Assembly (NCBI GenBank): GCA_023920165.1
Contig: CP089276.1
Coordinates: 3,100,001-3,164,000 of the forward strand
Origin: Curvularia clavata
Lineage: Eukaryota
Length of the DNA: 64,000 nt
Direction of reading: 5' to 3'
In this document: positions 51,277-56,168 of the stretch, piece after piece
Position numbering within the stretch: the stretch's first letter is position 1
How the letters are laid out: each line of letters starts with the position of its first letter
Program-made: the position numbers and the translations under genes
Notes under the pieces: model-generated
Databases searched by the model: none
What the model saw: only the letters and a program-made list of their open reading frames with translations
What the model was told of the DNA's origin: nothing

Positions 51277-52450
51277 ATTATCCTCTGTTCGACTTGGTTT
51301 CATGGTTTGCGACCAAGTAAACGGATACCCCATATAAGGGGATGAGAAAAGTGTATACTCCAAGGGCAGACAGGAGGCGTATTCCATATGGAGACGGAGA
51401 AGAAGCACAAAAAAACGGACCGTCCACGTCCTTACTCTTCCCAATGTCCTTATCTCACCAAAAACAACAAAAAAGTCGGGCAACCCATACCTCCTTTTCG
51501 CAAAATGGCAGGTGGGCGGAGTTAATCGGGATCCTTTTTTTTTTCTTCTTTTCTCTTGTGTACTCTCTTTTTTTTTCACCAAAGAAGTGTCTTTGTGTTT
51601 GGAATGTGCAATAAGCTCTGCTTTATGGGGGGATGAGAAAACGGGAGTTTCTTTCGTGATTGTACTACTTTACCATTATGGAAATTCTCTCTTTCGATTG
51701 ATCAAGAGTTGGAGATGCGAAAAGAAAAAAGTGGGGGTTAAATTAGTTTAATGGTATGCGATGGTTGTTTGAGGAGTTGACAAAAGAAGATGCGTGTATG
51801 TATGTATGTGTGATTTGCGACATGGCGTGCTTGAGTGACGTGTGTAGTTTCGTGCATTGTATTCATGACGTGGTTTTGTTGAGTTGGTCTAAGTGTTCGT
51901 TTAGCACTCAACCATATCAACATGCTGTATGGGGGAGACTGCTACACGATATTGGAATCTATAGCACAGGATATACTTCTGAAAATCACTCAGGATACAA
52001 AATAGGCATGATCGAAACTGACAATTCCATTGCATTACGACATGACATCGTCTCCATTACTCTATAATCTCGTATGTATGCACACGATGAACCATCGCAG
52101 TTCCAGTCCGAATCTACTCCACGCTTGCGGATATGATACAAAAAGACACAAAAAAACAATACGCCTAATGCCAACCCAACGCTATGCAATCAAAAACCAA
52201 GAAGCAGCCGAAGCCAATTCCAAAGCGCTCCGTACGTTTTTTTCGTTTCTTTGTGACCCCTATACTTGTATTTCCATGTCCAGCTGGCATCAGGCCAAGG
52301 ACCCGCCCAAAGCTTCAGGGAGATTTTAAAACCAACATATCCTTTCGTAATCACACTCATTAGACATGTGCACATCGCGACGATACCAGCACCCATGACG
52401 GAGTAGGCTGGTCCGAAGTCCACGGTTTCCCATAATTTTACCCAGCCCGC

Positions 52451-53894
52451 CTAGTAACCGAGGCAGCCTGGGATATGGAGGATCAAAATTGTCCAGGGCA
52501 AAATGCTCGAGAGCATAAGTCGCCAAGAGCCTGCTGCTGCAGGGGCCGCGGGAATAGCCACTCCAGCGTTGCCCTGCGGTCCACTGGCTGAAGGTGCTGC
52601 AGTCGCCTCGGGATAAATGGTGCGGATTGTCGTGAAGCCACGGTCGTCATAACCTGTCACCGTCTTAGGCCCATTGGCGGATGAATCCGTAGGCAAAGCT
52701 TGCGGCGAGGAGACATATGAACCTTGAGGGGACATCTGCGGAAACACAATCAGTAAATTGTTGGGAAGATTAATCAAGGGCTCAAGAAATGGCTTACTAA
52801 CAGTGGCCGAGCTGGGTGGAATGACCTTTCCGGAGTTCGAAACGGTCCACCCGCTCGGTAGCCCTGGATAGTTTGCAAATGTGGGCTGAGGAGTGGGGGT
52901 CGCGTTCGGGTCGGGAATCCAGGGGTAAACGCTGGGGCGCTCAGGGTTGGAAGTCTGGTGAGGAGTAAAAGGTAGTGGCGCGCCAGTAGCTGTGGCAGTG
53001 ATTGCTGGCGCATCTGCAATTGGAGCCTTGCCTCCCGCGAAAATGGTACCTCCATTGGACCGAATAGATTTCCAAGTACCGGATGAATCGCCGTAAACGT
53101 ACTGGGTTCCGGTGGAGTAATCTTGAACCTTGAGCGATTTGACATACATAGAGAATGGTCCCTGAGAGTAGTCGGTAGGACCGCGAGCCCAAGAGATGGT
53201 ACCTGCGGGGTTTGCTGAATCTCCGCCGCTCCATGCGCCGAACTTGATCTGCATGGGCGTTTGAGGGTACTGGTTGTTGGCATTGGCGGGTTCGAGAGTA
53301 CGAACAGTGGTGCCGTCAATTTGCCATACAATTTGCTCAGGCGTCCACTCGATGGTGTATGTCTTGAATCCTGACTGGCTTCCGGGGTCTGAATGGAAAG
53401 CACCGCGGTTGTAGTCGGTAGTCTGACCTGGGCGTTGTTAGTAGGTATTCAGACGAGCAAAAGTCACATTTCCTACCTTTTCCGAAGTAGTTTGTTTGAA
53501 CCTCGTCTGGGTCTGCACCAAGCCACTCCCAGTCAATCTCGTCGAGGGTGTCCGACTGCAAGACAAAACTGCTAACAATGCCAGCACCCGGCGCGGCTTT
53601 GACTTGAATGTCGACTTTGCCGAACATAATGTACCACAGCGAGGTGAGCTGGGGTGCATCACCTGACTTTGAGATGGTAAAAGCTACACCATCTTTGCCA
53701 TATGTCGGGTTACCCTGGGGTGTGAAACTGTCCGATTTTGAACTAAAGTCAATGTTTACAGTCTTGCCCAAGGCAGAGTCGGCAGGGCAGTCGCTCTGCC
53801 GTGTTGGATTGCAGTTGGACCATGTTTGTGCTGCTGAGGGAAGATAGAGAGCGGCAGAGGCCAGAGCTGCGAGGGCCCTTGTTGTGGCGCGCAT
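52451..53894 (-). CDS. GH16 Crh-type cell-wall transglycosylase, secreted, probably GPI-anchored
   Basis: Signal peptide, CNPT..CP.D.ALG, YIMFGKV, catalytic DEIDWE, QTNYFGKG, QYPQTPMQIKFGAW. Intron 53428-53476; last intron 52736-52801 or 52736-52797 (alternative stop at 52665). Confidence 0.93.
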
Positions 53895-54752
53895 CTTAGT
53901 AAAGGCGACGGCCGTAGCGATAGTGACGTGGGATTAGAATAGAAGGCCGCCGCGGAGAAAAGGACAGTTGAGAAGTGCTATAGTGTTGAGCGAGGACTAG
54001 CAAGCAAACACGTGAGTACCGTAGAAAGAGTGAAGAAGATGGCTGGGTACCGTCTCAGCACTTGAGAGGTAACTGGGCGACAGGTGTAAGGGTGCAGGGC
54101 TCGTGGCCGGCGACCCTGCAGCTTTTGTACATTGCCAGACATCTCTGAGCGGTGACCTACGTGGTAATGTCCAAGAGAAAACAGGATAGCGGGGCCGGGT
54201 TGGGTGAGGGCGATGCGCGAGTGGATGGAATTGGACGAGGTTGGCAGGGTGACGGTGAGGTGGTTGGTAGACTTCCCAGCCACACCAAGCCCCTGCCCAG
54301 CACTCGACCGCCAGACGCTGCTGCCAACACGCAATCTGGACGCGCGTGAGAAGGCCAGTCTATGACGAAAGCTGGCAACTTTCGATACCTGCCGGCAACC
54401 CCGTTGGGCAGCGTCTCGACTATGCAAGGAAGGATTGTAAGCAAGGATGGAGGCGTTGGCGTGAGGAGAACACCCTTGCCCGCAGATGGGCGGGTGTGGC
54501 GTCACGCATCCAGACCCCGCAACACCACCCAGTCCATCCCACCATGAAGAATCCCGTGGCTTTTTTTAGCTCTCGTCACAACCTCTGCATACGACCCGCC
54601 GTGAGATCCCCAATAGTATCTGCAGTGGAGCCGGACCCTGCATATCAAGGATTGGCATTGACTATCCGACATTGAGTCACACACATCCGAAGACTTTGCC
54701 GGTTGCACGACCTCTCACCACCTCTTAACACAAGGCAGTCCCGAAAGAAGAA

Positions 54753-56168
54753 ATGTCTCTCACCAACGCCACCCCTCTCGAGGTCGCCCAGGCAGCCAGG
54801 CTCGGATCCCGGAAACTGGCCATCTTGTCTACCGAGAAACGGAATGCGGCCCTCACAGCCATCCACGATGCACTGGCGAGTGCCAAGGACGAAGTTTTGG
54901 CTGCCAATGTCCAGGACCTCGAGGCCGCCAACAAGGCCGCAGCAGGAGGCACGCTGAGTGCAAGTCTGGTAAAGAGGCTGGATCTGGGAAAGCCGGGAAA
55001 GTATGAGGATATGCTGCAGGGGATTTTGGATGTGCGAGATTTGGAAGATCCTATCAACAAGACGACTGCGAAGACGCTGCTCGACGACAACCTGGTTCTA
55101 TCGCGGATCACGTGCCCTATTGGCGTGCTGCTCATCATTTTCGAAGCGCGACCCGAAGTCATTGCCAACATCTCCGCGCTAGCTATCAAGTCTGGAAATG
55201 CCGCCATCCTCAAGGGTGGTCGCGAATCCAGCAAGAGCTTCGCGGCGATCGCATCTGTCATCTCCAAAGCCTTGGCCTCAACTGCAGTACCGCCCGACTG
55301 TCTCCAGCTCGTTCAGACTCACGATGTGATTGCCGACCTCCTCAAGCAAGACACATATATCGACCTGTGCATTCCACGTGGCGGCAACAAGCTAGTCCGC
55401 TATGTCAAAGACACAACCACGATCCCGGTCCTCGGCCACGCAGATGGCATATGCTCCACTTACCTATGCGCCGACTACCCTGCAGACAAGGCCACCAAGA
55501 TCATCATCGACGCAAAAACAAGTTACCCCGCCGGCTGCAACGCGCTTGAACAACTTTTGGTAGAGGAATCAGCCCTCAGCACCAGTCTTCCGGTTGTAGC
55601 AGAAGCACTCCTGCAAAAGGGTGTTTCACTCCGCTGCGACCAAGCGTCACTAGCTGCTCTCAAGGGCAAGTTAGACCCGCACTCTGCCGCACTATTGCAA
55701 GACGTAGGACCAGAAGACTATGACACTGAATTTTTGGACTACATCCTCGCCATCAAGACAGTTTCAAACGTCGGCGAGGCTGTTTCTCACATCAACGCGC
55801 ACGGATCCCACCACACCGATGCTATTCTAACTCTCGCAGAAGCCACTGCCAAGTCGTTCCTCGCTGCCGTAGATTCCTCCAGCGTGTACTGGAATACCTC
55901 TACCCGCATGGCCGATGGACAGAGATATGGATTCGGAACCGAAGTCGGCATCAGCACGAACAAGATCCATTCGCGGGGACCCGTAGGACTAGAGGGCCTG
56001 ACAATCTACAAGTGGGTGATTGTAGGCGATGCGCAGGTGAGTGCCGAGTATGGGGCTGGAGGCAAGCAATGGAAGCACCAGCGGTTGCCTGTCGGCGACG
56101 AGGAGAGTGTGGCACAGAATGAAGAAGAGAGAGAAGTCTTGAGGAAGTTTAGGGCGAGCAAGGCATGA
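54753..56168 (+). CDS. PRO2: Gamma-glutamyl phosphate reductase
   Basis: CPIGVLLIIFEARP, KSGNAAILKGGRES, IPVLGHADGIC, YPAGCNALE, FGTEVGISTNKIHSRGPVGLEGL; intronless. Confidence 0.96.
   Translation: MSLTNATPLEVAQAARLGSRKLAILSTEKRNAALTAIHDALASAKDEVLAANVQDLEAANKAAAGGTLSASLVKRLDLGKPGKYEDMLQGILDVRDLEDPINKTTAKTLLDDNLVLSRITCPIGVLLIIFEARPEVIANISALAIKSGNAAILKGGRESSKSFAAIASVISKALASTAVPPDCLQLVQTHDVIADLLKQDTYIDLCIPRGGNKLVRYVKDTTTIPVLGHADGICSTYLCADYPADKATKIIIDAKTSYPAGCNALEQLLVEESALSTSLPVVAEALLQKGVSLRCDQASLAALKGKLDPHSAALLQDVGPEDYDTEFLDYILAIKTVSNVGEAVSHINAHGSHHTDAILTLAEATAKSFLAAVDSSSVYWNTSTRMADGQRYGFGTEVGISTNKIHSRGPVGLEGLTIYKWVIVGDAQVSAEYGAGGKQWKHQRLPVGDEESVAQNEEEREVLRKFRASKA

Follow-up and report, generated by a model that had tools for sequence, protein, structure and literature searches.

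In human and mouse, tandem 5' splice sites of the GYNNGY type place two GT dinucleotides 4 nt apart, where they compete within one U1/U6 binding region, and the choice between them shifts the reading frame (PMC4267661). In the available part of that study, alternative splicing at such sites is described as mainly noise or as coupled to mRNA decay; the regulated cases are conserved, have two donors of similar strength, and mostly tune expression. Here, we describe a donor pair of this kind in a 64,000-nt stretch of Curvularia clavata DNA (GenBank assembly GCA_023920165.1, contig CP089276.1, positions 3,100,001 to 3,164,000), which we refer to as the window and whose own numbering we use throughout. 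The pair lies on the minus strand, in a gene predicted to encode a Crh enzyme of glycoside hydrolase family 16 (GH16), the family responsible for linking chitin to glucan in the fungal wall. Unlike in the mammalian cases, both frames downstream of the pair are conserved, each has its own stop codon in the last exon, and the pair is kept across fungal classes. The best explanation overall, and one that we consider probable, is that tandem-donor choice in this Crh gene yields two tails that differ in their anchoring and in the location they give the enzyme in the wall.

Tandem donors, anchor swaps, and dual-coding exons are each known in animals. In the surface proteins NCAM, acetylcholinesterase, and CD58, splicing swaps a glycosylphosphatidylinositol (GPI) signal for a membrane span or exchanges C-terminal tails. 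The likeness to the Crh gene is that one gene gives rise to surface proteins differing solely in their C-terminal anchoring signal; the difference is that those genes use alternative exons, whereas in the fungal gene a 4-nt shift of the donor causes a single exon to be read in two frames. Mammalian dual-coding exons, such as those of INK4a/ARF and GNAS (XLas/ALEX), are like it in that purifying selection acts on a single stretch of DNA in both of two frames and synonymous divergence is lowered. They depend on alternative first exons or start sites and encode unrelated proteins, whereas in the Crh gene the tail alone differs and the choice of donor sets the frame.

In fungi, glycolytic enzymes acquire cryptic peroxisomal targeting when a splice choice at the 3' end sets the C-terminal sorting signal. 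SKI7/HBS1 likewise represents conserved fungal alternative splicing (PMC3597508). The Crh gene resembles these systems as a rare instance of ancient, conserved, proteome-diversifying splicing; it differs from them in gene family and compartment, and the accessible parts of the sources describe no dual-coded exon with two hydrophobic tails. Within the Crh/Crf family itself, C-terminally different products of one gene (Crf1, Asp f 9, Asp f 16, and Crf2) have been claimed for Aspergillus fumigatus (PMC2721682). According to the available portion of that report, Crf2 equals Crf1 residues 1 to 327 joined in frame to residues 390 to 395, its authors found no splice sites there, Asp f 16 was doubted, and neither a 4-nt donor shift nor a second frame is described. 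We considered Crf2 as a candidate for the same phenomenon and rejected it, as an in-frame internal loss without splice sites.

As far as we have seen, the arrangement in the Crh gene is apparently unreported. No description of a dual-frame Crh tail was found in the literature searched, which left most subscription journals and supplements outside its coverage. The available text of a study on the A. fumigatus Crh proteins (PMC6458159) contains neither "splic" nor "isoform." The main text of a paper on splicing in Fulvia fulva (PMC11694984) has 0 matches for GH16, glycosidase, GPI, transglycosylase, or A5SS, and its supplements could list the gene.

The donor element occupies positions 52792 to 52801 and reads GTTAGTAAGC on the minus strand (52801 to 52792). 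It follows exon 2 (52802 to 53427), which is common to both isoforms and encodes the second half of the GH16 domain and a linker ending in ...YPGLPSGWTVSNSGKVIPPSSAT. As in other GYNNGY sites, two GY dinucleotides lie 4 nt apart at the exon-intron border: donor A starts with the G at 52801 (GTTAGT), and donor B starts with the G at 52797 (GTAAGC). They share one acceptor, a CAG ending at 52736, and a branch-point-like CTGAT lies at 52753 to 52749, so the last intron spans either 52736 to 52801 (donor A, 66 nt) or 52736 to 52797 (donor B, 62 nt). Donor A falls between codons (phase 0) and keeps frame 0, and exon 3 then reads MSPQGSYVSSPQALPTDSSANGPKTVTGYDDRGFTT...GSWRLMLSSILPWTILILHIPGCLGY. The product, MSPQGS...TVTGYDDRGFTT...GSWRLMLSSILPWTILILHIPGCLGY*, is a protein of 442 aa with a Ser/Thr/Pro/Ala stalk of about 70 aa, a YDD+GF motif, and a second hydrophobic, GPI-signal-like end; its stop is the TAG at 52451 to 52453. 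Donor B appends GTTA to exon 2 and shifts exon 3 by one base. Its product, ...SSATV-N-VPSRFICLLAASFAYGFIRQWA*, is a protein of 372 aa that stops 23 codons on, at the TAA at 52667 to 52665, after a hydrophobic tail and a basic residue.

As a consequence of the two registers, the first 71 nt of exon 3 (52665 to 52735) code in two frames, as MSPQGSYVSSPQALPTDSSANGPK in the long frame and as (N)VPSRFICLLAASFAYGFIRQWA* in the short frame. The region that codes for the long isoform only (52454 to 52664) holds the remaining S/T/P/A-rich stalk, including TGYDDRGFTT, and the hydrophobic C-terminal end ...SWRLMLSSILPWTILILHIPGCLGY. Dual coding works here because hydrophobic NTC and GCC codons in one frame read as TCN and CCN (Ser and Pro) in the other: short-frame TTC, CTC, ATC, and GCC codons appear as TCN and CCN in the long frame. 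The original prediction, made from the letters of the window, had placed the two donors at 52801 and 52797 with a common acceptor at 52736, and the sequence agrees exactly. It had also assigned the short hydrophobic tail with its stop at 52665 to the downstream donor, and the stalk with a second hydrophobic tail to the upstream donor, and the translations agree.

We assessed conservation with a metagenome scan that yielded 43 loci. Sixteen of these, in which the YPGLP.GW / GKV.PPS.A linker was missing or which ended before it, were left out of the counts (17 if we add L040, whose first-pass tblastn match stopped short of the linker), as was L027, which has the linker and no GT at the expected place. 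The remaining loci and the window constitute 20 distinct exon-3 sequences, 18 genomic and 2 cDNA. Each of the 18 distinct genomic sequences, window included, has the donor pattern GT[ACGT]AGT[AG]AG[CG], and both frames are open in every one of them, as had been expected of orthologues. Across these 18 sequences, the entropies of intron positions +1 to +10 are 0, 0, 1.5, 0, 0, 0, 0.3, 0, 0, and 0.5 bit, and from +11 on the introns are unalignable (1.1 to 2.0 bits). The contrast between the near-invariant first 10 positions and the unalignable remainder indicates that the donor pair is more than chance. Only +3 is free to vary, and in the short isoform it serves as the wobble base of a Val codon. 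The last intron is kept in 18 of 18 sequences; intron 1, in comparison, is missing at the same site in most relatives, which read on as G-Q-T.

The conserved positions bear on two rival explanations in which a single isoform is functional. If only the long isoform were functional, the donor at +4 would be GYNNGY splicing noise, as at most such human sites, and its GT at +5/+6 would need no explanation of its own, being part of the ordinary donor consensus. Against this stands the RAG at intron +7 to +9 in 18 of 18 sequences, which is conserved past the normal donor footprint and, judged by its position, fits a second donor. If only the short isoform were functional, the long frame would be either a relic in decay or an artefact of gene prediction that favors the longer open reading frame (ORF). 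Consistent with that, donor B matches GTAAG, and in most lineages the +3 base of donor A is C or T. The GT and AGT of donor A are invariant, but this is a weak point against the short isoform acting alone, because the first G, the T, and the second G also serve the Val codon and donor B.

The tails themselves are also conserved. In 20 of 20 sequences, the split codon is followed in the short frame by 21 to 25 residues that conform to [D/N][V/I/L]P[S/T]RF.Y, a hydrophobic run, and W-R-F/I, in that order. An S/T/P-rich stalk is encoded by the long frame, and [Y/W][D/N].[R/K/Q/H]GF occurs in it in every case except the Eurotiales sequence. Fifteen genomic loci contain the whole of the long frame, and in each of them but L011 it has a hydrophobic end. 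Locus L030 is closest to Teratosphaeriaceae proteins, and L023 to L026 are closest to proteins of Thermoascus, Paecilomyces, and Aspergillus; by these placements, the arrangement extends from Dothideomycetes to Eurotiales. The same kind of short tail is found at the end of a Podosphaera protein (P0304). The persistence of the short tail as far as Eurotiales and Podosphaera counts against a functional long isoform alone, and the persistence of the YDD+GF motif and the hydrophobic C-terminal end across orders counts against a functional short isoform alone.

Two side observations concern the long tail. In L011, the long frame ends in ...SATSQSVSTLTNALTNATI, without the hydrophobic end of its close relatives P0028 and L013, which could reflect an extra intron, a frameshift, or a real loss. 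The stalk motif, in the form [Y/W][D/N].[R/K/Q/H]GF..T (about 52616 to 52651 in the window; loci L010 to L030), is present as a single copy in Pleosporaceae (TGYDDRGFTT) and as two copies in many other lineages. It matched no Pfam family, nor did the 116-aa tail at E values up to 1.

We estimated the proportions of synonymous (pS) and nonsynonymous (pN) differences from six related Pleosporaceae sequences, with pairs pooled and no tree model; the values indicate direction and are not calibrated probabilities. The last 190 codons of exon 2 have, in the exon frame, a pS of 0.444, a pN of 0.052, a pN/pS of 0.12, and a raw distance of 0.148. In the region specific to the long isoform (raw distance 0.288), pS is 0.586, pN is 0.184, and pN/pS is 0.31 in the long frame, and pN/pS is 1.36 and 1.84 in the other two frames. 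The 69-nt overlap has a raw distance of 0.105, with a pS of 0.152 and a pN/pS of 0.52 in the long frame, a pS of 0.233 and a pN/pS of 0.26 in the short frame, and a pS of 0 in the third frame. The overlap is the most conserved DNA in the 3' half of the gene, yet it encodes no catalytic part. Reduced synonymous divergence over 52665 to 52735 had been predicted, and it was found (pS of 0.152 and 0.233 versus 0.444 in exon 2).

Taken from these alignments, the values argue that the long frame is coding and that the overlap is doubly constrained, with purifying selection in both frames. A ratio of 0.31 in frame, against values above 1 in the other frames, is difficult to reconcile with the long frame being a relic, and the ratio of 0.26 in the short frame is difficult to reconcile with the short tail being noise. 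Codon-position entropy across the 20 sequences (0.97, 0.60, and 0.86 bit at short-frame positions 1, 2, and 3) is mixed; it fits a double constraint and decides nothing alone.

An overlapping frame may also arise cheaply. For each sequence, we left the long protein unchanged and made 1000 random redraws of its codons, weighted by the codon usage of the gene. In such draws, chance often leaves the short frame open, which favors the view that the long isoform alone is functional. In contrast, ≤0.9% of draws in 19 of the 20 sequences, and 2.7% in L016, contained a 14-residue window at least as hydrophobic as the real one. Because equally hydrophobic tails are this rare, the short tail appears to have been selected rather than to be a by-product of the long frame, whose protein sequence leaves the hydrophobicity unexplained.

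Four sequencing runs (X1, X2, X4, and X8) were compared with the window. None is on record as RNA, and all are labeled "RNA? (a guess)"; contigs free of both introns in all four runs indicate that the runs contain RNA. The 62-nt skip that corresponds to donor B was assembled in all four runs, in a 1900-nt contig of X1 (3 mismatches) and a 2252-nt contig of X8, with a shorter side of 255 letters, and in short pieces of X2 and X4, with sides of 30 and 29 letters. A 64-nt skip with "TG" between the sides, found in X2 and X4, probably represents the donor-B junction again, in a variant that carries a silent T>C change at 52799 (GTT>GTC). A 66-nt skip with GT..AG ends, which fits donor A, is present in X2 (depth 9.9) and X4 (depth 28.3), with a shorter side of 24 letters and the mark "between: not known." For the window's own species, firm evidence is limited to the downstream donor. 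Over 52300 to 54000, X2 and X4 each hold two versions of the gene about 9 to 10% apart (equal-length contig pairs with 0 to 1 versus 43 to 49 differences), which could be two related strains or species per sample, or two gene copies.

Firm use of the upstream donor comes from a relative's transcript. The metatranscriptome cDNA contig L001 is 99.3 to 100% identical to genomic loci L005 and L006, and it misses exactly 64 nt beginning at donor A. From the same sample as L001, cDNA contig L014 misses 58 nt beginning at donor B when compared with genomic locus L013 (92 to 96% identical). Both junction types therefore occur in RNA, donor B in 4 of 4 runs and in L014, and donor A in L001. Judged by the junction assembled, the downstream donor is dominant in the window's species, and the upstream donor is the one used in the species of L005 and L006. 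The use of both junctions, as originally predicted, thus stands for donor B in the window's species and for donor A in a relative, and is weakly indicated for donor A in the window's species (X2 and X4).

These junctions complete the evidence on the two single-isoform explanations. Assembly of the short junction in 4 of 4 runs is what we would expect if only the short isoform were functional, but the spliced contig L001 uses donor A; together with the conserved and in-frame-constrained long tail, this leaves that explanation with a low probability. The donor at +4 gives the dominant contig in 4 of 4 runs and is used again in L014, which counts against splicing noise, and we regard a functional long isoform alone as very improbable.

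Intron retention had been proposed as the source of a third form. In the window, the 66-nt intron is indeed stop-free and in frame, so that 52451 to 53437 is one open frame of 328 codons. This property is not conserved: 11 of the 18 genomic sequences have an in-frame stop in the intron, and intron length modulo 3 varies. No retention was seen among the X1 or X8 contigs. We reject intron retention as a third conserved form.

Annotated proteins exist in both forms. With a crude regular expression applied to 305 database proteins, 73 were classed as long, 54 as short (about 11 of these truncated or other on inspection), 135 as unspliced read-through ORFs beginning V-S-K/E, 42 as lacking the motif, and 1 as other. 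Short forms are annotated in, for example, Exserohilum turcicum, Alternaria atra, Botryosphaeria dothidea, Aspergillus niger, and Aspergillus terreus; long forms are annotated in Bipolaris, Alternaria rosae, Parastagonospora, Fulvia, Dothistroma, and A. fumigatus ("Crh-like protein 4"). If their sources call ORFs unspliced, full-length ORFs of either form on 1.6- to 2.3-kb run-assembly contigs are probably transcripts. Public annotations of the Crh4-like gene are inconsistent across fungi. The 400-aa and 450-aa Crh4-like models of A. fumigatus (P0244 and P0257) differ by an internal stretch just past the junction and have the same C-terminal end, a difference that points to a third gene model, one whose last intron is longer. 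The proteins listed included no short-tail model for A. fumigatus.

The annotations raise the question of whether the short and long forms come from paralogous genes and not from one locus. Aspergillus Crh families have about five genes (PMC6458159, available part), and the two forms are mostly annotated in different species, as paralogy would allow. For the loci examined, this explanation is refuted: the same DNA encodes both tails in 18 of 18 distinct genomic sequences, and L001, with its donor-A junction, matches the same locus as L005 and L006. In Aspergillus wentii, proteins P0243 (371 aa) and P0251 (452 aa) have an identical 348-aa prefix and part exactly at the junction, which shows that one gene was annotated both ways. 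We assign paralogy next to no probability.

The two tails differ in how they resemble anchoring signals. The short tail has one conserved small tripeptide, SSA or SAA, which is contributed by the shared exon 2 and lies 26 to 30 residues before the end. It is followed by a spacer of 7 to 8 residues with Pro and Arg, an uncharged run of 14 to 19 residues, and 1 to 4 last residues that include a basic one. By its composition, the short tail fits a GPI signal and a short membrane span equally well. The long tail, by contrast, resembles the customary combination of a stalk and a GPI signal, and every long tail has omega-like tripeptides. Ser/Thr-rich stretches favor the wall. In ascomycetes, residues just before the omega site influence whether a protein remains at the plasma membrane or reaches the wall (PMC3280450, available part).

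A hydrophobic run of just 14 to 19 residues before a basic residue admits a different use of the same switch. A span of that length and ending could mean retention in the early secretory pathway. Both isoforms would then be made, the switch would mainly tune the amount of wall-anchored enzyme, as regulated GYNNGY sites mostly tune expression, and the short product would be an inactive or retained sink. Against this, the last exon of the Crh gene contains both stops, and the switch would therefore not be expected to act through exon-junction-dependent decay. In addition, the short form retains the entire GH16 domain and linker, and its conserved tail residues (P-S/T-R-F-x-Y and G-F) exceed the needs of a mere sink. 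We therefore consider the sink explanation unlikely, although not to the degree of either single-isoform explanation.

Our preferred explanation, two functional anchored forms, can be put as a series of proposed steps. The U1/U6 register on the 10-nt element would set the isoform ratio and hence the place of the enzyme in the wall. With both stops in the last exon, neither mRNA would be a target of exon-junction-dependent decay, so that both would be stable and both proteins would be made. The short form may be held at the plasma membrane, either through a short membrane span or through a GPI anchor attached at the SSA/SAA site that both isoforms share. The long form, with a classical, glycosylated stalk and a GPI signal, would be passed to the wall.

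Several observations weigh against this explanation. Support for both tails is at the level of sequence and RNA. One fungal GPI pattern fits 0 of 20 short tails, owing to their final basic residue; it fits 7 of 16 complete long tails, and those of Pleosporaceae, including the window's, are not among the seven, with a His in the last 10 residues. Predicted PredGPI sites are given for AfCrh1, AfCrh2, and AfCrh5 only, and AfCrh4 as annotated there is not listed among the Crh proteins with a predicted site (PMC6458159, available part), which would also suit a functional short isoform alone. The six sequences behind the pN/pS values are related and were pooled pairwise, so they are not independent. 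In the resampling, the short frame was open to about the observed length in 13 to 61% of draws, and openness next to an S/T/P-rich frame is thus cheap. The label RNA is a guess for all four runs, whose spliced contigs are the evidence for it, and X1 and X8 show the short form only. Use of donor A in the window's own species is weakly shown, because the 66-nt joint could be the donor-B junction of a variant. Finally, assembled contigs are non-quantitative and cannot give isoform ratios.

On balance, we regard the ancient dual-coding alternative 5' splice site as real; from it, we infer the anchor types and the functional consequence. Before the analysis, two outcomes had been named that would speak against the prediction, a single junction in use and orthologues without the second frame or donor; we observed both junctions, and both frames and donors in all 18 distinct genomic sequences. 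A broader claim is more tentative. The 10-nt donor element may be a splice switch that predates the split of Dothideomycetes and Eurotiomycetes, perhaps reaching Leotiomycetes, and that moves the transglycosylase between membrane-held and stalked, wall-bound forms; we rate this claim at somewhat below an even chance. If it is true, the switch ranks among the oldest known cases of conserved dual-coding splicing in fungi, and the codon complementarity of a hydrophobic tail and a Ser-Pro stalk could be a general route to such switches in fungal surface proteins.

The arrangement matters for several reasons. Conserved, protein-diversifying splicing is rare in fungi, and tandem donors 4 nt apart are usually dismissed as noise; the Crh pair has been kept for a very long time with two frames. 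It explains why annotations of the same gene disagree (about 370 aa versus about 450 aa). The Crh family includes known antigens, and one gene may place its enzyme at two depths of the cell surface. Work that expressed "the" cDNA of a Crh4-like paralogue may have tested one isoform only. The codon logic, with hydrophobic NTC codons in one frame against TCN serine codons in the other, also provides a simple search rule for further cases.

The rest of the gene is as expected for the family. The whole gene lies on the minus strand. Exon 1 (53477 to 53894) runs down from an ATG at 53894 to 53892 and encodes an N-terminus, MRATTRALAALASAALYLPSAAQT, that by eye resembles a signal peptide, and the first half of the GH16 domain, in which an E-x-D-x-E motif is present as SDTLDEIDWEWLG. 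Within it, DEIDWE is presumably the catalytic motif of Crh and GH16 enzymes. Intron 1 (53428 to 53476; 49 nt, GT..AG, phase 1) is spliced out in contigs of 4 of 4 runs (joint 53425>53475, cut +2), and exon 2 begins at 53427. The 3' untranslated region (UTR) spans 52070 to 52450, with an approximate end taken from contig ends (the spliced contigs of X1 and X8 extend 227 and 232 nt past 52300); the UTR of the short isoform begins at 52664.

Pfam family PF00722 (GH16) matches exon 1 (E value 2.4e-21, profile positions 9 to 92) and exon 2 (1.4e-19, positions 99 to 175), and full-length relatives match it at 1e-45 to 1e-47. Among named proteins, the closest are GH16/Crh proteins of Bipolaris, Alternaria, Exserohilum, and Pyrenophora (71 to 89% identity), which points to a Pleosporaceae-like fungus as the source. 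The Eurotiales relatives include the A. fumigatus protein that its source names "Crh-like protein 4." Transglycosylase activity has been demonstrated for A. fumigatus Crh proteins (PMC6458159, available part). From the domain matches on both exons, the DEIDWEW motif, and the named relatives, the gene is an AfCrh4-like Crh gene of family GH16, with chitin-glucan transglycosylase activity predicted, and the Crh identity originally assigned to it holds. Divergently placed from it, at 54729 to 56168 on the plus strand, is an open frame of 479 codons that matches the aldehyde dehydrogenase family PF00171 (E value 3.2e-10).

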